Positions 3,381 to 62,538 of a stretch of DNA of 64,000 bases are shown in pieces (within the stretch, counting starts at the first letter, position 1; every line of letters begins with the position of its first letter). Below the pieces are notes generated by a model. That model searched no databases. It saw only the letters and a list, made by a program, of their open reading frames with translations, and was not told the DNA's origin. The position numbers and the translations under genes were made by a program. Origin of the DNA: a virus; UHGV virus genome UHGV-0039337; one strand, written 5' to 3'.

Positions 3381-4240
3381 TTATTCAATTGCTTCTTTTG
3401 CTGTTTCTCTTAATATATCTACTGTTAAATCTTCACGTACTATTACTTTTTTTACTGTAGGATCTCCTGGAACCTCAAATTTGGTTTCAAATAATATATC
3501 TTCCATTACTGTTCTTAATGCTCTAGCACCCATTTTTCTTTCTTTTGCTTTTTGTGCTATTTTAGGCAATGCACCTTCTTCTATGTCAAAATCTATACCA
3601 TCCATTTTAAATTCTTCTTTATATTGTTTTAATAAAGCATGTTTAGGTTGAGTTAGAATCTTAACCATGGCTTCTTCACTTAATTCATGATATACAGCTA
3701 ATAATGGACATCTGCCTATAACTTCTGGTATTATACCAAATTCTACTAAATCATCTGGTATGACTTGAGATATAACATTATTATAATCCATTTCTCCTTT
3801 TGATTCTGGCTTACCATTAAACCCTATGCCTACAGATCCTTTTTTAAGTCTTTTATTTATTATTTCTTCTAGACCTACAAATGCTCCACCTAATATAAAT
3901 AATATATTAGTAGTGTCTATTTTAACGCTTTTAGAATCTAATTTATTTAATTTAACGTCCATTTCGCAGCCTTCAATCATTTTTAGTATAGATTGTTGTA
4001 CTGCTTTACCGTTAACATCTTTGTTATCTCCTCTTGCATCAGATGCTTTAATTTTGTCAAATTCATCTATAAATACTATTCCTTTTTGTGTTTTTTCTAC
4101 GTCTCTACCTGCTGCGATATATAAATCTTTTATCATATCCTCTGTATCACGTCCAACATATCCTGTGCTTGAGAAAGAACTGGCGTCTTGTATAGTAAAT
4201 GGTATATCCATACAAGAACATATAGCTCTTATGGTTTCAC
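3381..4240 (-). CDS. clpX: ATP-dependent Clp protease ATP-binding subunit ClpX, exon 2
   Basis: Reading upstream of the ORF in frame gives SGKSETIRAICSCMDIPFTIQDASSFSSTGYVGRDTEDMI, which matches ClpX GSGKTLLAQTLA..PF..ADAT.LTEAGYVGEDVENI. Walker B IVFIDEFDKI and sensor regions are present. Joins exon 1 GPTG to exon 2 SGKS. Confidence 0.8.
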
Positions 4241-8237: not shown

Positions 8238-9494
8238 TTATTGTAAATCTGCAAATATTTTAGACATTTCACTTCTTACATCTACAGGTAGATACATAAC
8301 TCCGACTAATGGCTCGTTTTTTGATTGATCTATAAAAGCACTAAGTCCATTGTCTATTTTATATCTTTTTTCTGTTTGATTTTTTATATCGCCCATCATA
8401 ACAAACATAGAACCTTTACCTATTCTAGTACCTGCTACTTTTATAAGTTTTAACGATAAGTCTTCGGCTTCATCAAGTATAACTATAGTTCTATCTACTG
8501 ATACACCTTTTAAGTTTTGTACTATATCCATATCTAATTGATATCCTCTTCTTTTAGCTGCATCTTCATTTGTTGGATCAAATGCTTCTTTTACATCATA
8601 CATTGAATCATTAGTTAAGTATTGAGTCATAGGAGTGAAAAAGTGACCTAATTTTGCATAAAAGTCTCCAGGTAAATATCCTATCTCTGTTTCATCAACA
8701 GCTATTGGATTTCTTAGTAATAGCATTTTATCATATAATCCTGAATAAATTCTTTCTTCCATCATGTTTACGGCAAGTCGGCTTTTACCAGCACCATACG
8801 TACCTGCTATTACTTTTATAGGTACTTTATCATTATATAATAAATCCATAGCACAAGCTTGATATATGTTTAGTGGTTTTACTCTGGCGCTTTTATAATG
8901 TATGTCTACAAATTCTTCTGTATTTGCGTCCCAACGAACTGCTGATTCAGTATTAGTATCTGTATCATGTATTATTATATATTCATTAGCATATGGTCTT
9001 TTAGTTTCTAGCATGGCATACAATGCTTCATCATTTTCTTCTTCTGTACCATATAGTTCTATATAGCCTTTGTAGTCTTCTTCTTCATCTTCATCTTTAA
9101 TAGATATGGTAGGTATTTCTAATAGTTTAGCTTTTGCTTTCATACCATTATCATATGTTAATAGTTTTATGTCTACATTTTTTAAAGTGTTTTTCATGGA
9201 TACTAAACATGCTAATATTTTATTATCAGGTATTTTCATATTAAAATTATCTGGTAATGTTGCATTTTCTTGTATCGCTATTAAAATTCTATCTTCTTCT
9301 TCTAACTTATTTAATAATTTAAAAGCTTGACGTGCTTTATAATTTTTTTCTCCGTCTCCGAAATCTTTATGATTGTCAAGTTCATCAAGTACTACAGAAC
9401 ATACTAAAGCTGTTGCATTTTCTCTTTCTAATAATTTATCTACTCCCTCTGGGCTTTGCATAAGCGCTGAAGTATCACAGAATACATATTTCAT
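8238..9494 (-). CDS. PIN domain plus PhoH-like P-loop ATPase (YlaK-like)
   Basis: N-terminal PIN-like CDTSALM...VLDELD and Walker A VIAGTYGAGKSRLA typical of PhoH/YlaK proteins. Confidence 0.7.
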   Translation of the reverse strand: MKYVFCDTSALMQSPEGVDKLLERENATALVCSVVLDELDNHKDFGDGEKNYKARQAFKLLNKLEEEDRILIAIQENATLPDNFNMKIPDNKILACLVSMKNTLKNVDIKLLTYDNGMKAKAKLLEIPTISIKDEDEEEDYKGYIELYGTEEENDEALYAMLETKRPYANEYIIIHDTDTNTESAVRWDANTEEFVDIHYKSARVKPLNIYQACAMDLLYNDKVPIKVIAGTYGAGKSRLAVNMMEERIYSGLYDKMLLLRNPIAVDETEIGYLPGDFYAKLGHFFTPMTQYLTNDSMYDVKEAFDPTNEDAAKRRGYQLDMDIVQNLKGVSVDRTIVILDEAEDLSLKLIKVAGTRIGKGSMFVMMGDIKNQTEKRYKIDNGLSAFIDQSKNEPLVGVMYLPVDVRSEMSKIFADLQ

Positions 9495-17196: not shown

Positions 17197-18351
17197 TTAT
17201 AGAAAACCAATTGGTTTTGTTTCTTTATCTTTTTTATTTAGCATTTTATTTAATGTATGTGTTATATGCTCATAGTTAGTTTTTTTAGCTCCATGATCTA
17301 CTGCATATATACCAGCATGATTACAACAAGCAGCTATAAATGCTCCTGTTTTTTCTTCTGTTTGTTCTGCTAATGCTAAATAATCTATATCATCTTCATG
17401 TTTTAATTTTCCTACGTATAATTCAAATAATTTAATTCTTGATTCATAATTAGGAAGTGGTATATTTATTATTTTATCTATACGTCCTTCTCTTATTAAT
17501 GCAGGATCTAATTGTTCTTTTATATTAGTAGCACATATTACTATTATATTTTTTTCTGATGCAGTTGCCATACAATCAAGTAATTTATTTAATGCTGCTC
17601 TATATTCTTTATTTTCATCACTACTACTTCTTTGTACTCCTATGGCATCTATTTCATCTATAAATAAAACACCTCCACCTTCTTTGGCTAGGTCATCAAA
17701 TTCTTTACCTATACGTTTAGCACTATCGCCTACATATTTTTGTATTAAATCTGATGCTACTATGCCTTTATAATTCATATTAGTTTCATTTGCTATTGTT
17801 TTAGCTATTAGCGTTTTACCAGTACCTGGGCTTCCTTCTAATAATATACCAGCTGGTACGTCTACTCCCATTTCTAAATATTCGTCCATTCTTTTTACAA
17901 AGTTTATAGTGCTTAGTATATCTTCTTTTGTATCTTCTTCTAATATTACATTTTCAAGTTTACATTCTTGTATTTCTTTAGGTCCTTCTTTAGCTTTTTT
18001 TCTAGCTATTATTTCTTGCCATTTTTCATAAGCTCTAGGATATGTTTCAAAATGTGATACTATTACTCTCTTATTTGAGTCGTATTTGAAACTTAGTATT
18101 TGTCGTGTTAATCCCATACAACAATTTACTATTCTTATTTTTTCTAGATTACTCATTTCATCTTTATTGGTGAAACTGTTTGCTGTTAGATTATTAGACA
18201 TTACTACATAATCTGTTATAATAACGTCTTCTGTACTTTCTTCACTTAATACATATAAATTCATTGTCATTTGTTCAAAATTGACTGCTAACTCATATAA
18301 TAAGCCATCTACCAAATAATACTTAGTCCTTCTATTTTCTTTATCTTCCAA
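17197..18351 (-). CDS. AAA+ ATPase (classic AAA family: FtsH/CDC48/Vps4-like ATPase module without protease domain)
   Basis: Walker A GSPGTGKTLIAK, Walker B VLFIDEIDAIG, second region of homology ...ICATN...LDPALIREGRID. Confidence 0.8.
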   Translation of the reverse strand: MEDKENRRTKYYLVDGLLYELAVNFEQMTMNLYVLSEESTEDVIITDYVVMSNNLTANSFTNKDEMSNLEKIRIVNCCMGLTRQILSFKYDSNKRVIVSHFETYPRAYEKWQEIIARKKAKEGPKEIQECKLENVILEEDTKEDILSTINFVKRMDEYLEMGVDVPAGILLEGSPGTGKTLIAKTIANETNMNYKGIVASDLIQKYVGDSAKRIGKEFDDLAKEGGGVLFIDEIDAIGVQRSSSDENKEYRAALNKLLDCMATASEKNIIVICATNIKEQLDPALIREGRIDKIINIPLPNYESRIKLFELYVGKLKHEDDIDYLALAEQTEEKTGAFIAACCNHAGIYAVDHGAKKTNYEHITHTLNKMLNKKDKETKPIGFL

Positions 18352-34482: not shown

Positions 34483-35077
34483 ATACTATTACACCCCTGA
34501 TGTAATAGTAGCACTGTTTAATAGATTTTTGTAGATTATTTATTATTTTCTAAATAATTCTGCTACAGATGCAGCAAATAGAAAAATAGCAACAACAAGT
34601 AAAACAGTTATTAATATAGTTCCTAAAACTTGTGCTAGTATCATTCATCTATCATCTTCTTTTTTATTAATTTTTCTAAGTCGTCAACTATTTGTGAATA
34701 AGCTATCCATTTTCCGTATTCCGTTTCAGTTTGAAGTTCTCTAAATCTTTTTTTTGTTTCATGCAAGTTCTCTCTATATATATCTAGTAGTCTTTTTAAA
34801 TCTTCCTTCATACTTTCTCCATTCCTATTTATATTTCTTCTTCAAATTCATTGCCACAATCATTACATTCAATATGAAAAACTGTCACTTCGTATTGTTC
34901 GCCTGTGTAATAATTAGTTACTAATGTTTTTTCTTTATTTACTATGATTAAGTTAGTGCTCCTACATTTTTCACATTCCATATTTACCTTTCACAAAATT
35001 AGTTATTGTATATATATTTTTATGCTTACAAAACAATCTTTTCATTAATCTTATTCGATCTTCCTATAATAAAAGAA

Positions 35078-35278
35078 TTATTTTATTGCATATTCTCCTA
35101 GTTTATTGCCACACATAGGGCAATAATTTATTTTTATCCCATATATGCTTTCTTTTTGTCCACCAACTCTATTTTCTTCTAAATAGTTACAACTATTAAT
35201 TTTTATTGCATAATCACTATTATTTTTATACATTAATGGTTCTTTATCTATATATCTACCTTCGCAATATTTACACAT
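35078..35278 (-). CDS. zinc-ribbon protein (66 aa)
   Basis: CKYC...CPMCG. Confidence 0.4.
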   Translation of the reverse strand: MCKYCEGRYIDKEPLMYKNNSDYAIKINSCNYLEENRVGGQKESIYGIKINYCPMCGNKLGEYAIK

Positions 35279-35310
35279 ATTTCCTCCAATAAAAGAATTA
35301 TTTTATTTAA

Positions 35311-35529
35311 TTAAAGACTATCTATATAATCAAAACATTCTCTAGTTATATTTTCATACTCTACAAGTTCTTCTTTTTGTTCTTTTGTTAAAAGTTCTTT
35401 TTCTGCTATAAATTCATATTTCATTTTTTCAATCTCTTTTAATTTGCTTACAACAGATGTTAATTCATGAGTTGTACCTATTATAAGTTTTTTATATTCT
35501 CTAAATTTATTTTCTTTCATACATTCCAA
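35311..35529 (-). CDS. hypothetical protein (72 aa)
   Basis: ORF. Confidence 0.4.
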   Translation of the reverse strand: MECMKENKFREYKKLIIGTTHELTSVVSKLKEIEKMKYEFIAEKELLTKEQKEELVEYENITRECFDYIDSL

Positions 35530-35663
35530 CCTTTCTAAATAAAAATTATATTTTAACTTTTAAATTATGTCTTTTTTCAAAAACATAATATGGCTCATAC
35601 TTAAGCTGATATGTTGTTATTTTGGGTATACAACTTTAAGTGTGGAAAATAAAAGAGAGTGAA

Positions 35664-36971
35664 TTAAAATTTATCACTCTCTAATAACTCCATAAGTTGT
35701 GGAATATCTACTCCAAACCCTTCTTCTATTATCGTTTTAGTTTTGGTTATATAACCATCCCAAGTAAACTTACTTATAGGTGCTTGATATTCAACTCTTT
35801 TATACTTAGGTTTCTTAGTAGCAGATGTGCCAAATAAGACTTTTGCTCTAAGAACTTCGAATGAATAACCTCTACCTGATTTCTCTATATTCTTAATTAG
35901 ATTATTAACACTTTCAGTATAAGCATTTGTAATGGTACATTCAAAGTAATTAAATATCTCATGCTTCCAGTTATCAACTGTTTTAGCAACTTCTTGATAG
36001 TATTTCATATCTTCTGGTATGCTTGCTTTCCATTCAAGATAAGCATTATAAGCATCGTTCTTATTCTCATACTTATATATCTGCCTAAACTGTTCTTTAA
36101 GTTCATATGCCAACTTTAACTGTGGAAACTCTGCAAATATTATTTCAAGTTTCCATATATCTCTAGCCTCTAAGTCCTCGTGATTCCTTAGAAGTAAGAA
36201 TCTTTCCTTTAATAACTTAGACCTTCGCTTAGCATCTAGAGTTGCTCTAAAAGCCTTTCTCTCGTTTTCTAGTGCCTTTGTAATAAGTTGTATTACATGG
36301 AATTTATCAACTATTACCATAGCATTTGGTAACACCTCATATACTGCCTCTTTGTAGTATCTCCACATATCTATTGTGACTACTTCTATATCATACTTGT
36401 TAGGCAATTTGTTTAAGAATGCTTTTACATCTGACTTCTTTCTGCTAGGCTGGATGTCTAATACCTTTCTACCAATTATATCTGTATAAACAGCTCTCAT
36501 GCTCTTATTTAGATGTGCTTCATCTATACCTAGTATAATTGGAGTAGTGTAGTCTAAATCCTTTTCTGTCTCTTTTACATAGCTCTCAAAGATACGTTTT
36601 ACTGTAGTAGGTGAAATACTATATTCTTCTGCTATATTAGCAAATGGCTTTTTAAGAGATTCTCTTTCTATCTGTTCTCTTAAACGTATAGTGATTTTAT
36701 CTCTATCATCTATGCTTTCATAATGCTGACTAAATGTACTTTTACAGTATTTGCATTTATATCTGTTAGTGTGTATTTCAATACCTACACGCTTTCCAAA
36801 ACTGTTTAAATCTCTTACAAACCTTTTAGACTTGCCATGCTTATAGTATTCCACTCCACCGCACTCAGGACATGCTAGAGGCTCTTTAACTGGTTTAACT
36901 ATTACTGTCATATCGTGTTCATCTTGTATTGTGTCTATAACTTCAAACTCTGGTAAATTTAGTATGTTCAT
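35664..36971 (-). CDS. ISL3 family transposase
   Basis: N-terminal zinc ribbon CPECGG...CKYCKS, HTH, and DDE region ILGIDEAHL...VTIDMWRYY; about 435 aa, typical of ISL3. Confidence 0.8.
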   Translation of the reverse strand: MNILNLPEFEVIDTIQDEHDMTVIVKPVKEPLACPECGGVEYYKHGKSKRFVRDLNSFGKRVGIEIHTNRYKCKYCKSTFSQHYESIDDRDKITIRLREQIERESLKKPFANIAEEYSISPTTVKRIFESYVKETEKDLDYTTPIILGIDEAHLNKSMRAVYTDIIGRKVLDIQPSRKKSDVKAFLNKLPNKYDIEVVTIDMWRYYKEAVYEVLPNAMVIVDKFHVIQLITKALENERKAFRATLDAKRRSKLLKERFLLLRNHEDLEARDIWKLEIIFAEFPQLKLAYELKEQFRQIYKYENKNDAYNAYLEWKASIPEDMKYYQEVAKTVDNWKHEIFNYFECTITNAYTESVNNLIKNIEKSGRGYSFEVLRAKVLFGTSATKKPKYKRVEYQAPISKFTWDGYITKTKTIIEEGFGVDIPQLMELLESDKF

Positions 36972-36972
36972 A

Positions 36973-37335
36973 TTACTCTCTTTCTAATAATTCTGGATTT
37001 TCATATATATTACCTATAACTTCCATAAATTCTGAAACATTATATATCGGTAATAAGTAATCTCCCTCTACATCGATAAAAAACATACCTTTAGAATATA
37101 TTATTTGACCCATATGTTCTTTAGTTTTAACTATATCCCCTTCATAAATTTCTTTTTCGTGTTTATCTTTTACTCCTGTCCATTGCATTAATCTACAAAC
37201 ATATGGATAAGGTGCACTCCAACGTCTACATTCTTCATCTTCCATTCTTACTTCATAATCTTCTAAGTTTATTGAAGTAACTTTTGCTATTTCTTCTTTT
37301 TCTCTATCCCACGCTCTAAATTTAATTTCTCTCAT
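36973..37335 (-). CDS. YopX family phage protein
   Basis: MREIKFRAWD...WTGVKDKHEKEIYEGDIV...IGNIYENPELLE, the hallmark YopX blocks. GGGAGG RBS. Stop lies 1 nt before the transposase ATG. Confidence 0.75.
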   Translation of the reverse strand: MREIKFRAWDREKEEIAKVTSINLEDYEVRMEDEECRRWSAPYPYVCRLMQWTGVKDKHEKEIYEGDIVKTKEHMGQIIYSKGMFFIDVEGDYLLPIYNVSEFMEVIGNIYENPELLERE

Positions 37336-37606
37336 ATTAAACCTCCCATATAATTTAATTACCTAAATTATACCACAGTTCTAGCCATATTTTCCACAGT
37401 TAAAGTTATTTCGAGTAATAAATTTTATATTCACTTTTCAATGTACGTTTTCTTACTAATCCACAGTTATAGTTTCATACCCGTTATTTTATATCTTATA
37501 TTAGTTCTTTTATCCGTAAAGAAAGTCGTTCGTTTATGTTGCCATATCAATTTCATTTAGTCGTCTCCAAAATTATTTTACCATTCATCATAGGTACTTA
37601 AATCTA

Positions 37607-38137
37607 TTATTTCTCTCCTTTATTATTATCATTATAGGCAAATACATCATTAAATCTATCTAAATCTAATAAATTATTTTTTACCAAGATATTCAAAGTT
37701 GAAATTATCTTACAAGTATCATCATTGCAATTTAGATATAAATTTTCTATCATACATTTATCACAAGTATTATAGTCAAATGAATGTATAACTTTATCAA
37801 AAAAATTTGCAAGTGCTTTTCGTGAATGTTCGCTTTCTCGTGCACAACAATACTCTTCAACTAATTGCTCTTTAGTTTTTCCACAATCAGCTAATAAATA
37901 ATTTAATAAATCATCCGTACTATATTCTACCAACTCAAGCATATCAAAAGAACAAGTAAATGGATAATATTTAGAATCAAATATTTTACAAGTTCTATAT
38001 TTTTCATCTACATCTATAACAGTAAATATCATACCTGCAAATTGTGTCATATTATCTAAATAAACAATTCCATCATAGCTTTCACCTACAACTAAATCAC
38101 TTCTTAATCTAACTTTATCTCCATTTTTTATTTTCAT
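37607..38137 (-). CDS. hypothetical protein, N-terminal SH3-like KxGDxVxxRxDLxVG domain plus Cys-rich C-terminal region
   Basis: MKIKNGDKVRLRSDLVVGESYDG shared with 39102, 40374 and 11205. Confidence 0.5.
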   Translation of the reverse strand: MKIKNGDKVRLRSDLVVGESYDGIVYLDNMTQFAGMIFTVIDVDEKYRTCKIFDSKYYPFTCSFDMLELVEYSTDDLLNYLLADCGKTKEQLVEEYCCARESEHSRKALANFFDKVIHSFDYNTCDKCMIENLYLNCNDDTCKIISTLNILVKNNLLDLDRFNDVFAYNDNNKGEK

Positions 38138-38160
38138 AATATCATCTCCTTATTATTTTA

Positions 38161-38541
38161 TCATTCATCATAACTGCTTACATCTATTATTTCACCACAT
38201 ATAGGACATCTTAATTCAACAATGGTTATTACATTACTTGGTGTAACAGTATATACAAAACTTCTATACCCTGTATCACATTTTTTATAATGTTCATGTA
38301 TAAATTCTTCTGCTCTTTTCTTTTGTTTATCTGATAATGTAGCTAAACTATTTCTTTTATAAAAATCTAGTTCTTCTTTTAATCTTTTTAATTCTTTATC
38401 TTTAAATTTTTCATCTTTAATTTCCAGGTATGCTTTTCTATAATCTTCTTTATCTTCTTCTAATAATTCTATCAAAGCTTGTAGCTCTTTTAATGAATCT
38501 TTAATGCTTTTTCCTCTAAGAACTGCTTTTTTCCAATCCAT
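38161..38541 (-). CDS. hypothetical protein with C-terminal zinc ribbon (126 aa)
   Basis: CPICG. Confidence 0.45.
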   Translation of the reverse strand: MDWKKAVLRGKSIKDSLKELQALIELLEEDKEDYRKAYLEIKDEKFKDKELKRLKEELDFYKRNSLATLSDKQKKRAEEFIHEHYKKCDTGYRSFVYTVTPSNVITIVELRCPICGEIIDVSSYDE

Positions 38542-38556
38542 AATATCTCCTCCTTA

Positions 38557-38961
38557 TTAATAACAGTATGAAAATACTAAAGTATCATTTTCCCAATCAA
38601 ATGTATCATATAATTCTTCTAATGATTCTATATCTTCTTTTAATGTCTCAACATCTTCTTTTGATAAACTATATAAATTTGATATATATTGTTTCAATTC
38701 TTCTCGAGTGATTAAAGTAAAACCATTGGTATCATAAGCATTGTAAACTCTTTTATTCATTGATACTAATGTTTGTCTTAGTATTATCACTTGTACCCAG
38801 TCATTATCTAATAGTGGTAAATCAATACTAGATTCAAATTTATAAAAGTTATCTTCACCTATACAATTATATATTTTATTTCTCAAATTTGCATATTTAT
38901 TTAAGTCATCTTGATTTCCTATTTTTATTCTTATCTTAGTGAATCCACCTTCATATTCCAT
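38557..38961 (-). CDS. hypothetical protein (134 aa)
   Basis: ORF. Confidence 0.45.
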   Translation of the reverse strand: MEYEGGFTKIRIKIGNQDDLNKYANLRNKIYNCIGEDNFYKFESSIDLPLLDNDWVQVIILRQTLVSMNKRVYNAYDTNGFTLITREELKQYISNLYSLSKEDVETLKEDIESLEELYDTFDWENDTLVFSYCY

Positions 38962-42802: not shown

Positions 42803-43564
42803 TCAATCATCTTCTTCAACTTCATATTCAAGCATTGCTTTATATAGTTTTTCAGGTATTATATCTCTATATTGATTAGCAACTTCTTTAATATATTTTT
42901 CTTTGAAATTTTTATAAACTTGAAATGCTTCTTCTGGTGTGTTATAGTATCCTAAAAAATTTTGCTTTTTGTCAGTATTACAATAAGCTTTATATTTTTT
43001 ACTTGATTTATTATAAGATACTCCAACTGGAAAATTACCTCTATCATTATTGCGTTTTGTAAATAATTTATTTATATTTTGAGGTACAAATATACAAGTA
43101 TCAGGACTGTATATTTTATTTCCTTTTATTAATATATCTTTGTCAAGATTCATTATTTGTTCTTCTATCTCATAATAATTATCTTCAAACCATTCAGCGA
43201 AATTTTGAAAATTATGCCATGGTTCATATACTTCACATTGTTCGTATGTTGGATGCTTTTGTATATATTTAGGATCATAACATCTACACAACATTCTATT
43301 CCATATGTCATAATGTTTTGTGTGTTTTCCATTTATTGATACATTGTATCTTCCTTCACCTATATAACCGGTGTTAAAAATTGTTTTTTCATAAGGACAT
43401 TTTACTCTACCGTTTATGAAATTAATATATTGCACATGTTCTTTTGTCCAGTCATATTCAGGGAAATATACATCAATATCATTATATTTTCTGTAATCGA
43501 TTATAATAATTTCATTACCAAAATTATTATGATTTATTGCGCCTATAATATTTTCTTTATCCAT
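42803..43564 (-). CDS. AP2-domain-containing homing-endonuclease-like protein (HNH/NUMOD-type phage endonuclease family)
   Basis: C-terminal AP2-like DNA-binding block GVSYNKSSKKYKAYCNTDKKQNFLGYYNTPEEAFQVYKNFKEKY. Confidence 0.5.
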   Translation of the reverse strand: MDKENIIGAINHNNFGNEIIIIDYRKYNDIDVYFPEYDWTKEHVQYINFINGRVKCPYEKTIFNTGYIGEGRYNVSINGKHTKHYDIWNRMLCRCYDPKYIQKHPTYEQCEVYEPWHNFQNFAEWFEDNYYEIEEQIMNLDKDILIKGNKIYSPDTCIFVPQNINKLFTKRNNDRGNFPVGVSYNKSSKKYKAYCNTDKKQNFLGYYNTPEEAFQVYKNFKEKYIKEVANQYRDIIPEKLYKAMLEYEVEEDD

Positions 43565-44675
43565 TTGCTTTATCCTTTTCTTTTTTTCTATATTCTTTTA
43601 TTAAATTTTTTGTATAATTAAATAGACTATTTGGATCTTTTCTTTGATATTCTACACGTGTCCATTCCATAGGTGTTCTTGAATAATAGTCTCCATATCC
43701 TCCTGGTGCAACATGACCATTGTAAACTCCCATGCCTATTTCTGTACCATAATATAAACATATGTCACTATCATCAAAAGAAAATAACATTTCTAATGCT
43801 TTTTTAACTCTATAAATATCATGATTAAGTGATACTGCTATTCTTGTTTGATCATGATTATCCAAGAATACAACATCGTATTTAGGATCGTTTTTGACTG
43901 TTAATGGTTCACCTGTATTTAGTGCATGTTTTATCCAACCTGATTCTTCAAAATTAAATGCTTTTCCTATTGTTCTAGCATATTTATTAGATTCTTCATA
44001 AGTATCCCAACATTCAGCAACTAAATAAGCATCAGGTTTTATTTTATGAACCATATGACTAAACCAGCCCCAAAATTCTATTGGATCACAACCATAACTT
44101 ATATATGGAACTGCGTCTAATCTAAATCCATCTACATTATGTTCTATCCAAAATCTTACGATATTTGTTATCATATTTCTTACTTTTTGACTACTACCAT
44201 TTAAAGCTGGCATACTAGCATCCCATGGAGCATAATAGAATTTACTATTTTCATAACAATATCTCCATTTGTTATCTATTTGAGTGTCGCTCCAAAAATA
44301 ACAATCATTTTCTCCTTTGATGCTCTCTCTGAATAACTTATTATGATAATCAGTATGACATAATACTAAATCAAGAAATATTTCTATATTTTTATTATGT
44401 GCTTTAAATATAAATTTGTCAAAATCTTCCATTGTACCATACTGTTTTTTTACTTGATAATAATTGCTAACATTATATCCATGTTCACTTGGAGAATCAA
44501 AAATAGGAGTTAGCCACAAACTGCTAACTCCTAATTCTTCTATATAATTTAACTTATCTGCTAAGTCTTTAAAGTCTGTACAAAATGCTGGTGTATAAAT
44601 TTCGTATATTATTCTTCGTTTATTATTCAAAGTATCACATCTCCTTTTAATTTTAAATCTTTTGATCAAACTCAA
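43557..44675 (-). CDS. GH13 alpha-amylase family glycoside hydrolase
   Basis: All four GH13 regions: DLVLCH, GFRLDAVPY, AECWD, FLDNHDQTR. N-terminal YEIYTPAF...LGVSSLWLTPIF. Confidence 0.85.
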   Translation of the reverse strand: MSLIKRFKIKRRCDTLNNKRRIIYEIYTPAFCTDFKDLADKLNYIEELGVSSLWLTPIFDSPSEHGYNVSNYYQVKKQYGTMEDFDKFIFKAHNKNIEIFLDLVLCHTDYHNKLFRESIKGENDCYFWSDTQIDNKWRYCYENSKFYYAPWDASMPALNGSSQKVRNMITNIVRFWIEHNVDGFRLDAVPYISYGCDPIEFWGWFSHMVHKIKPDAYLVAECWDTYEESNKYARTIGKAFNFEESGWIKHALNTGEPLTVKNDPKYDVVFLDNHDQTRIAVSLNHDIYRVKKALEMLFSFDDSDICLYYGTEIGMGVYNGHVAPGGYGDYYSRTPMEWTRVEYQRKDPNSLFNYTKNLIKEYRKKEKDKANG

Positions 44676-60354: not shown

Positions 60355-62538
60355 TTATAATAAACTGCTAATGTCCATGTTGCTTAAATATTCAGCTGTT
60401 TGTTGCTCGTCTTGTTTTTCTTCTGTCGCAAACATAGGAGTATTCATGTTATATTCTATTAATGCAGCGTATCCTATGTTGTTTTCTCTTACTCTTTTTC
60501 TGACTATTAAACTTGTGTAGTCATTTATTATTTCTCCGTCATAATATAATCCTGTCACTATTTTGCCATCTTCTAATACTGTAAATTCAGGATATATTAC
60601 AGTCACATCATCTCCGTCAAAATCTGATCCTGCTAATTGATGTTTAACTGTGTTGTCTTGTGCTAAGATGATACAATTATTAGGGCATTCATTTATGAAT
60701 TGCATATATTCTGGAGTTATGCCTCTTACTGCTATTTCTTCAGATAGTACCATATAAAATACTTCAAACTCATTATCACCTTGAGATGGAGATTTTATTG
60801 CTGTTGCTATTCTCATATTATTTAGTACTGTGTCTTTTTCTTCTTGTGTCATTGCAACATTTGCTTCTAATTGTTCTTTCGTTTGTCTGTATTCTCTTTC
60901 GAATGCACTACTATAAACTTCTAATGCTCTAACTTTCATAGTTTCACCTGTTGGCATTACATAGCTTACTAATTTTGATCCTAATACTTCTTTGCAGTCA
61001 TTCAATAAGTGATCTTCTGGGACCATTCTTAGATAATTGGAATTGATAGAAAGTTTTAAGTTTGCAACTCTATTTAATAATGCAGTGTCAAGTTGTTTAA
61101 TCTTAAAGTTGTTTAATAACTTATCTTCTTCTGCTCTTTCAGGTGCTAGGTTATAACAGTTAAAGTATGCTGTATTACTTAATCTTACAACATTATTTTC
61201 AAAACTTACTTTACCTTTAGCAGCTTCAGCTTCCACTAATTGTCTTTCAGTAATAGCTTTTACATATTTTATTGCATCTTCTAAGTCATCACGCAATTTA
61301 AATACAATCTGAGTTCCCATGTTGCCGTTAGTTCTATTTGACATATTTACTAAGCCTATTTCCATTGGGTCTATTGTGTCTTTTTCTACAATGTATTTTC
61401 CCCATTTAAAAGTATCTTTATCTGCCATTATGTTTATCTTAGCTGCTAATTTTACTAATTCTTTATCAGATAATTTAGTTAAGTCAACTTTATGTCCATC
61501 TTCCCAGCAGTAGCATTTATTTATGTCTAGACTCATCATCATTTTCATTGCTTTAACTTTTTGGTTTAAGTGATATGCTTTACCATGTCCTTTACCTGCT
61601 GCACCTTTTATTCTTCCTTGTATACTCATTCTTCTAGCTTGTGCTAATGATACTTTTTCTCCTGTTAGTTCGCTTACTATTTCGCTTACCATTCTATCTC
61701 CAAACACAAAGTATCCGTCTCTAAAGTTATTGTCAATGCTTTTTACTTCTGTATTTTCATCTTCAGATTGTATACTACCATTAAAGTAAAATACATTATT
61801 AGTTTTTCCAGCTTCTGTCCATAGTGTAGGAGTTGTTGCACATAAACTTATTCTTGATGCTATACCTGCTAAACTGTCAAAGTCCATATCTCCTTTAGCT
61901 GATTCTTTTTCCAATACTTCTGCTAATAATCCTCCTGTTAGATTGTTCATAGTCTCGAATTGTAAATCAGCATCATGGTTTGTAAAATAAACTTTAGACT
62001 TTTTGCCCATAGATGCGCTACCACTAGCTGGATAGAATGTTTGTCCATAGTTGTCTAATTTTAGTCCTGACAATCTTAGATCTTCATATTTTGATTCAGC
62101 ATTTTTAAATGATACTAATACTATGTTGTTGTACAATTTATAAGCAGATTCAGTTGGACCAGTTACTACTTGTCTAGTATTTCCTTCTCTGTCTATTTTT
62201 ACTTCTATTTGTTTAACTTCATTGTTTAATTCTCCAAATGCCAACACGACTGGACTATTTCCAACTGTTTGATATCCTGTTTCAATATGTCCAACATCGT
62301 CAATGTCTACAGTTTGTACTACTATAAAGTTAGCATTTCCCATTTCATCTTCGTACATTTTGTGCATTGCTTTTCTTTGTAATCTTTCAATGTTTGCTGC
62401 ACTTAAACTGTTGTTTGTTTTGCTTACGTTTTTTCTGATTCCTTTAAAATTATTAGTAGTAGATTTAGTCATAATGACCTCCTTTGCCCACGTATTAGCC
62501 AATACGCAGGACTTTGTGTTACTGCACTTCTTTACCAT
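60355..62538 (-). CDS. 727-aa protein with multisubunit-RNAP-like catalytic motifs (candidate single-chain two-barrel RNA polymerase of the YonO type, or beta-prime-like fragment); alternative: portal/other virion protein
   Basis: Near the C-terminus, LAGSDFDGDDVTVIYPE parallels the universal beta-prime motif NADFDGDQMAVHVP. Mid-protein, IQGRIKGAAGKGHGKAY loosely parallels the beta DPBB motif AGRHGNKGV. Confidence 0.35.
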   Translation of the reverse strand: MVKKCSNTKSCVLANTWAKEVIMTKSTTNNFKGIRKNVSKTNNSLSAANIERLQRKAMHKMYEDEMGNANFIVVQTVDIDDVGHIETGYQTVGNSPVVLAFGELNNEVKQIEVKIDREGNTRQVVTGPTESAYKLYNNIVLVSFKNAESKYEDLRLSGLKLDNYGQTFYPASGSASMGKKSKVYFTNHDADLQFETMNNLTGGLLAEVLEKESAKGDMDFDSLAGIASRISLCATTPTLWTEAGKTNNVFYFNGSIQSEDENTEVKSIDNNFRDGYFVFGDRMVSEIVSELTGEKVSLAQARRMSIQGRIKGAAGKGHGKAYHLNQKVKAMKMMMSLDINKCYCWEDGHKVDLTKLSDKELVKLAAKINIMADKDTFKWGKYIVEKDTIDPMEIGLVNMSNRTNGNMGTQIVFKLRDDLEDAIKYVKAITERQLVEAEAAKGKVSFENNVVRLSNTAYFNCYNLAPERAEEDKLLNNFKIKQLDTALLNRVANLKLSINSNYLRMVPEDHLLNDCKEVLGSKLVSYVMPTGETMKVRALEVYSSAFEREYRQTKEQLEANVAMTQEEKDTVLNNMRIATAIKSPSQGDNEFEVFYMVLSEEIAVRGITPEYMQFINECPNNCIILAQDNTVKHQLAGSDFDGDDVTVIYPEFTVLEDGKIVTGLYYDGEIINDYTSLIVRKRVRENNIGYAALIEYNMNTPMFATEEKQDEQQTAEYLSNMDISSLL

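Follow-up and report, generated by a model that had tools for sequence, protein, structure and literature searches.

The ISL3 family of insertion sequences (IS), with members such as ISL3, IS1165, IS1167 and IS31831, classically comprises elements of 1.2-1.5 kb with one open reading frame (ORF), bounded by imperfect terminal inverted repeats of about 15-39 bp, which insert into AT-rich targets with an 8-bp duplication. Circular transposition forms have been reported for some members. Passenger genes are also known in the family: ISPpu12 is an ISL3-family transporter IS (tIS) with four ORFs, including lspA and a merR-like gene. Here we analyse a 64,000-nucleotide stretch of the virus genome UHGV-0039337 (hereafter the window), whose positions 35624-37482 very probably constitute an intact, recently inserted ISL3-family transporter IS, with a phage-borne lineage of swappable cargo behind it. 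In the window copy the cargo is a gene of the YopX family, which lies directly upstream of the transposase gene.

The window element resembles described ISL3 members in the domain content of its transposase (DDE_Tnp_ISL3, a zinc ribbon and a helix-turn-helix, HTH), in its imperfect inverted repeats starting with GG and in its AT-rich 8-bp duplication, and these features support its membership of the family. It differs from them in its length of 1.86 kb (1.76-2.6 kb among its relatives), in having two ORFs with the passenger upstream of the transposase, and in carrying three copies of an end motif at the left end plus one intragenic copy; moreover, its lineage occurs in phage genomes, whereas the classical members are found in chromosomes or plasmids. 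Because it has two ORFs and not the compact single-ORF form, we place it among the passenger-carrying variants, still within ISL3. With ISPpu12-type elements it shares passengers that are enclosed by the terminal repeats of the IS and travel along with the transposase. In those elements, however, the cargo is fixed and the element is plasmid- or chromosome-borne, while the window lineage presents at least 20 cargo sets in a slot behind an end promoter.

Two other kinds of system invite comparison. In the IScream phages, IS30 transposases have been co-opted for prophage mobilisation and their copies bracket the whole prophage (PMC12823448). In both cases a bacterial-type IS transposase lineage is tied to phages of gut Clostridia, but IS30 moves an entire phage, whereas the 1.9-kb ISL3 element would move within and between phage genomes with one or two accessory genes. 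Like integron cassettes and phage 'morons', the lineage offers a promoter-proximal slot for interchangeable, unrelated accessory genes; unlike them, it has no integrase, attC or attI, and a DDE transposase would move the slot together with its cargo. The IScream phages are thus a different phenomenon. A case from S. suis was considered as a match and rejected, as it concerns IS4-like composite transposons. Our searches of the literature on ISL3, phage cargo genes and IS in phages found no description of the window lineage. Passenger-carrying ISL3 elements are themselves known, but a phage-borne ISL3 lineage with a promoter-driven, highly variable slot is apparently undescribed.

Boundaries and gene content of the element

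The termini were set by comparison with relatives, namely 35-36 viral-contig loci retrieved in a transposase scan (proteins ~78% identical). In all of these, conserved DNA runs from GGGTATGAAACTATAACTGTGG to CCACAnTTAAAGTTrTATACCC, 19 nt past the transposase stop, and the sequence beyond both ends is unrelated. Projected onto the window, homology stops precisely at 35624, where the right inverted repeat (GGGTATACAACTTTAAGTGTGGA, 35624-35646, plus strand) forms the end 3' of the transposase, and begins precisely at 37482, where the left inverted repeat (GGGTATGAAACTATAACTGTGGA, 37460-37482, minus strand) forms the end upstream of the cargo. The element so delimited measures 1,859 bp, and its 23-bp terminal repeats match at 19 of 23 positions. 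An 8-bp target-site duplication, which the original prediction had named as a check, is present and perfect: GTTATTTT abuts the right end at 35616-35623, and the identical 8-mer abuts the left end at 37483-37490.

The same prediction had taken an inverted repeat at 35632-35651 and 37388-37407 as the ends of a 1.78-kb unit (1,776 bp). This repeat is real (20 nt, 19/20 matching), but it pairs a terminal copy of the end motif with a subterminal one. Its left arm lies inside the right-terminus region and starts 8 nt inward of the terminus at 35624, and its right arm, 75 nt inward of the left terminus, is the middle one of the three motif copies there; comparison with relatives thus replaces the 1,776 bp by 1,859 bp. 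The end motif, AACTTTAAsTGTGG, occurs at 35632 (plus), 36112 (plus, within the transposase gene), 37391 (minus) and 37458 (minus), and across the 64-kb window it is confined to 35632-37474. Because the motif is present four times in the element, the terminal pair had to be settled through relatives; and since identical ends in the same register delimit ~80 related elements elsewhere, the end repeats are not a chance match. A composite transposon was ruled out by the presence of one transposase gene and no second IS copy bracketing the cargo.

The transposase gene (35664-36971, minus strand) is an intact ORF of 435 aa. As predicted originally, its product is of ISL3 type, with matches to DDE_Tnp_ISL3 (PF01610, 6e-61), Zn_ribbon_ISL3 (PF14690, 8e-12) and HTH_Tnp_ISL3 (PF13542, 1.8e-9), all of which pass the curated cut-offs. 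Seven residues that are invariant in 22 homologues (down to 39% identity) are all kept in the window protein: the zinc-ribbon cysteines C34, C37, C73 and C76, together with D201, D222 and E353. D150, which is near-invariant in the same set, is kept as well. No solved structure exists for the transposase, and we infer which three acidic residues make up its DDE triad.

The passenger (36973-37335, minus strand) encodes a 120-aa YopX-family protein, matching Pfam YopX (PF09643) at 5.5e-25 over residues 5-118, with 88.3 bits against a cut-off of 22.4, and belonging to PHROG 98. The ORF, the Pfam match and a ribosome-binding site (GGGAGG, 37342-37347) agree with the earlier description of a complete YopX gene with its own ribosome-binding site, and 1 nt separates the YopX stop from the transposase ATG. 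The final codons of the gene (..LERE*) extend into a conserved transposase leader, AGAAAGAGA. Four relatives of YopX in the PDB (2qyz, 2ox7, 2p84 and 2i2l) are all uncharacterised, and the literature on YopX yielded no function.

Two explanations had been offered for this arrangement, that the IS carries YopX as a passenger or that an IS end has fused to a phage gene. We found that a transposase 97% identical to that of the window (P0001) adjoins a 119-aa YopX on many gut-metagenome contigs. These sister elements with YopX measure 1,867 bp, are 93% identical to the window element over bases 1-1,859 and occupy four other sites in different phages, with unrelated flanks. One site adjoins terminase genes (duplication GGATTTAT), one a holin/amidase lysis module (AAAGTTCC) and one a CI repressor and integrase (AAAAAAAG), and the fourth context shows the duplication TAAAAATT; all four are perfect 8-bp duplications. 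In total, a perfect duplication was found in 8/8 YopX-type copies having both flanks, at four distinct sites. Because YopX elements recur at four sites with duplications of their own, fusion to a resident phage gene is excluded, and the end-to-end copies support YopX as a true passenger that has moved to other phages together with the transposase.

The same data bear on the related idea that a plain ISL3 element landed beside a resident YopX gene and that the outer repeat matches by chance or as a relic. In favour of this idea, YopX is common among phage genes (PHROG 98), the arm at 37388-37407 is indeed not a terminus, and the search for an empty site of the window copy found none. Yet YopX and transposase together are 93% identical from first to last base at four sites whose duplications lie outside YopX, the duplication in the window also lies outside YopX, and YopX is absent from the locus in relatives of the host phage, all of which makes this explanation extremely unlikely. 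The exact window pair of transposase and YopX was found in a single context, that of the window, which ENA and Logan assemblies recover independently, and no close YopX homologue matching the peptide patterns used was found in viral contigs. An assembly chimera, in which a metagenome assembler joined an IS to phage sequence, might be suspected, since IS copies are classic assembly break points. We hardly entertain this explanation: the same locus and gene order appear in ENA ERZ27287489 (a 111 kb contig) and in Logan ERR7738433, and a perfect duplication flanks the element.

Evidence for movement between phage genomes

Beyond the YopX type, ~80 related loci (transposase ~78% identical) retain the same ends and transposase. 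A perfect 8-bp duplication flanks 24 of 31 complete relatives from IMG/VR, and further perfect duplications were found among 44 metagenome loci, several of them labelled human gut. The duplicated 8-mers are 93% A+T. Units identical in both cargo and transposase occur at different sites in three groups of loci (L009/L010/L016, L007/L032 and L021/L026). For six relatives we could also identify the empty site, reconstructed as 40 nt of left flank (with one copy of the duplication) joined to 40 nt of right flank, which matched other contigs at 100% over these 80 nt. The comparison with relatives lacking the insertion, which the original prediction had suggested, was thus successful for six relatives and for the BSP9 element described below, but not for the window copy.

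Additional forms of the element were observed. Mini-elements of 512-843 bp have lost the transposase but retain the two ends, the promoter and a single cargo gene; perfect 8-bp duplications flank several of them. They comprise L024 (9152-9886), L082 (1471-2313), L100 (2269-2780), L148 and L159 (633 bp), L141 and L157 (666 bp) and L161 (583 bp), and arose either by mobilisation in trans or by deletion in place. Nested insertions occur in L005. In other loci the flanks are unusual and show no matching duplications: in L027 each flank is the reverse complement of the other (TAAAAAAT / ATTTTTTA); L005, L029 and L030 have a common right flank with different cargo and left flank; and L003 and L024 have a common left flank. 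Such arrangements point to inversions, deletions or recombination among copies sharing a genome. In L004 (2193-5361) and L006, which carry a 178-aa cargo, a gene for an IS605-type TnpB stands just upstream. We considered whether this gene is cargo within a distant left end and rejected the idea, as no left end was found within 4 kb.

The lytic Bacillus subtilis phage BSP9 (MG000860; Herelleviridae) provides a cultured example. It carries a 2,034-bp element (L038, 2360-4393) with an adenine methyltransferase gene and a 43%-identical transposase, flanked by the duplication GGTAAAGA, and the exact empty site is held by phage Mawwa (MW749002; L107, 841-848), in which the 8-mer is present once and the sequence is 99.7-100% identical. 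The BSP9 record annotates only an 'adenine methyltransferase' and an 'ISL3 family transposase', with no mobile element. Like the window element, that of BSP9 has homologous termini (GGGTATTTAACTTTCATGGTGA), an 8-bp duplication, cargo upstream of the transposase and a phage host; in addition to its divergent transposase, it differs in that the cargo lies between the terminal and subterminal repeats, whereas in the window it follows the subterminal repeats.

The closest cultured relatives are the C. difficile phage-plasmids phiCD211, phiCDIF1296T and LIBA6276, whose transposase is 61% identical. Their locus also has a gene 2 nt from the transposase start, annotated in phiCD211 (LN681537; L037, 2560-4880) as 'Exodeoxyribonuclease X', and it keeps the subterminal repeats and TATAAT. 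Unlike in the window, the terminal repeats are not recognisable and the cargo is of another kind, and the phiCD211 copy may have been immobilised. This 61%-identical tnpA argues for the possibility that the window transposase, too, is a domesticated or decaying gene, fixed and immobile in its phage. Against this stand the intact ORF with all invariant residues, the intact termini, the perfect duplication and the varying positions of near-identical copies, and we consider domestication very unlikely. At greater distance, a 59%-identity lineage (L101) has the same layout with a 65-aa zinc-ribbon cargo, and in relatives of 51-56% identity a small ORF abuts the transposase start. In one 43% relative, which adjoins CBASS genes, no same-strand ORF lies directly upstream of the transposase.

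The cargo slot and its proposed operation

The left 118 nt of the element are conserved family-wide and consist of the terminal repeat, a ~45-nt spacer, two further repeats and an extended -10 box, TGnTATAAT, overlapping repeat 3. Repeat 2, the subterminal copy of the end motif (AACTTTAACTGTGGAAA, 37391-37407, minus strand), lies 67 nt inward of the terminal copy in all relatives. Comparison of the repeats within the window revealed a third, degenerate copy (CTAGAACTGTGG, 37373-37384, minus strand); in relatives, repeat 3 is a full copy of AACTTTAAnTGTGG, 21 nt past repeat 2. A predicted sigma-70-type promoter directed inward (37367-37396, minus strand; TGGAAA, 18 nt, TGgTATAAT) is the best-scoring site of the region, matching at 10/12 positions with an extended -10. 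It overlaps repeats 2 and 3, with its TGGAAA -35 hexamer overlapping repeat 2. In every relative the left module stays conserved up to and including the -10 box, beyond which the cargo diverges, and conservation returns 0-20 nt upstream of the transposase ATG, in the leader.

At the other end, just inside the right repeat, a terminator-like hairpin with a T-run (35654-35682, minus strand) overlaps the transposase stop codon. Folding of 35640-35695 (minus strand) gave -18.4 kcal/mol (z = -4.95); the loop of 11 nt explains why a simple terminator scan overlooked this structure. All relatives keep the hairpin, whose stem shows compensatory changes in the 59%-identity lineage, and it would act as a terminator. 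Within the transposase gene, an exact 17-mer copy of the subterminal repeat (36112-36128, plus strand) stands in the orientation of the right inverted repeat and is present in all relatives. In L101 a compensated frameshift has turned the peptide FPQLKL into FPTLKV, yet the DNA motif is preserved. The motif is therefore not a mere by-product of a conserved peptide; its DNA appears selected, although the gene is more strongly conserved in nucleotides elsewhere, and it is probably a further transposase-binding site.

Between the left module and the transposase start, the family holds at least 20 unrelated cargo sets. They include three distinct types of YopX, a Tad2-like protein (PF11195, 1.6e-30), a C-5 DNA methylase (9e-74), nucleoside deoxyribosyltransferase-like and PAPS-reductase-like proteins, an XRE-type HTH protein, HNH nucleases, GIY-YIG/NUMOD nucleases, an AP2-like protein and many proteins of unknown function in phage PHROGs. 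At the DNA level, transposase genes of the family share 90.5-100% identity. The same cargo is paired with transposases 4-8% apart, and unrelated cargo with transposases up to 96.9% identical; such mismatched pairings imply that copies recombine and that cargo and transposase have separate histories. Two genes upstream of the element, the window has a resident 134-aa gene (38557-38961, minus strand) that shares 44% identity (2e-35) with the L125 cargo, a likeness which suggests that phage accessory genes supply the cargo.

The first 11 codons of the transposase gene (36939-36971; ~33 nt) are its most nucleotide-conserved part across lineages of 59-100% protein identity. Two independent rearrangements break right after GAATTTGAAG within these codons: in L100 (2740-2780) a deletion fuses GAATTTGAAG to the right end, and in L005 (1540-1600) the right end is inverted there. 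The transposase start at this sequence may be a hotspot for intramolecular transposition.

These observations also speak for a different mode of cargo turnover, a dedicated site-specific cassette exchange with the left module and the first ~33 nt of the transposase gene as exchange sites. Cargo boundaries are sharp and recurrent, the conserved codons and the two breaks fall where an exchange site would be placed, and there are chimeric cargo genes with common N-terminal segments, such as MDKLEFLSD.. in two cargo families. On the other hand, the right cargo boundary varies by 0-70 nt, the transposase is the only recombinase encoded, selection to keep the promoter and transposase start would alone give sharp boundaries, and the BSP9 cargo is placed differently relative to the subterminal repeats. 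On balance we consider cassette exchange unlikely, and favour the entry of new cargo by illegitimate recombination, after which selection would retain variants whose promoter and transposase start are intact.

We propose that the transporter IS operates as follows. Read on the minus strand, it is a self-contained unit of left terminal repeat, two putative transposase-site repeats over a predicted inward promoter, YopX, the abutting transposase gene, the terminator-like hairpin and the right repeat, and in the window it has inserted into an AT-rich intergenic site of a jumbo-phage-like genome, duplicating 8 bp. The transposase would bind the repeated AACTTTAAnTGTGG sites and move the element by the DDE mechanism typical of ISL3. 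From the end promoter, a single transcript would cover cargo and transposase and be insulated by the hairpin, and transposase bound over the promoter would limit its own synthesis, a form of autoregulation. Recombination between copies in co-infecting phages would shuffle cargo and transposase.

Host phages and implications for phage biology

G+C makes up ~25% of the window, and almost every ORF runs on the minus strand. The host genome resembles that of a jumbo phage: viral contigs of 173-204 kb are related to it, and the exact transposase is found on contigs of up to 271 kb. Phage genes lie on both sides of the element, whose ends are 1.86 kb apart inside the genome and do not coincide with the phage genome ends, so that a role as the phage's own integrase (Mu-like or IScream-like) was rejected. 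When 185,579 species genomes of bacteria and archaea were scanned at the protein level, no close relative of the transposase was found, and a scan of the same genomes for the left end found a single match, in a phage-like contig of a Clostridia metagenome-assembled genome. The loci of the lineage were recovered from viral contigs (35-36 and 42) and from metagenomes (44). The lineage thus appears to live in the phage genomes of gut Clostridia and relatives. The original prediction remarked that IS elements are rare in lytic phage genomes; this does not describe the present lineage, which is found nearly only in phage contexts and is common there.

Several points weigh against our interpretation of the element and its lineage. 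All support for mobility is computational, and we infer the functional steps past the insertion polymorphism; no excision product, circle junction or transcript was seen. Seven of the 31 complete relatives have no matching duplications, which fits recombination between copies but does not prove it. For the window copy, exact junction patterns of the empty site were unmatched in viral contigs and metagenomes, and in L039-L043, which have relatives of the flanking 176-aa gene, homology breaks off exactly where this gene ends and no empty site is seen. The promoter scan overall was not enriched over shuffles in this AT-rich DNA. The restriction to phages could be partly a matter of sampling, the search method reaches only close relatives, and the window element may already bear a name in ISfinder.

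Other features of the host phage were noted. Its large proteins have few PHROG or Pfam matches, and neither the region 35000-38200 (megablast) nor a 727-aa protein (tblastn) found a match among 50,697 cultured phage records. This protein (60355-62538, minus strand) has no PHROG match and a weak match to the cellular-type RNA-dependent RNA polymerase family of Pfam (PF05183) at residues 620-651, and may be a single-subunit RNA polymerase of YonO- or crAss-like type belonging to the host phage. A 372-aa protein (43557-44675, minus strand) contains a full alpha-amylase catalytic domain (1.8e-54), which is unusual for a phage-like genome. On the same strand lie genes for a PhoH-like protein (8238-9494), an AAA/clamp-loader-like ATPase (17197-18351) and a ClpB-like AAA protein (3381-4211).

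Transposable elements are held to be rare and harmful in phage genomes, and the mosaicism of phages is usually ascribed to recombination. On the computational evidence, the lineage described here shows dozens of precise, recent transpositions in phage genomes, each carrying along an accessory gene ready for expression, and elements of this type occur in a jumbo phage, in temperate phages and in a lytic Bacillus phage. We tentatively suggest, as a possibility nearly as likely as not, that the lineage is a phage-specialised shuttle, in which a promoter-driven early cargo slot spreads counter-defence and accessory genes between unrelated phages in co-infection, with jumbo, temperate and strictly lytic phages as its hosts rather than bacterial chromosomes. 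Candidate cargo for such a shuttle includes the Tad2-like anti-Thoeris proteins, orphan C-5/adenine methylases, the nucleoside deoxyribosyltransferase-like and PAPS-reductase-like proteins, and YopX. If this holds, the cargo would repay the phage for carrying the transposon.

A lone IS with a passenger would be a modest finding, whereas a phage-restricted lineage with counter-defence-named cargo and a culturable example is worth pursuing. The element is small and self-contained, and with BSP9 and Mawwa as a culturable pair it could become a natural gene-insertion tool for phages. If the cargo is adaptive, the lineage would offer counter-defence genes a direct route between unrelated phages with a common host, and the content of the slot would flag candidate accessory and anti-defence genes, YopX included.

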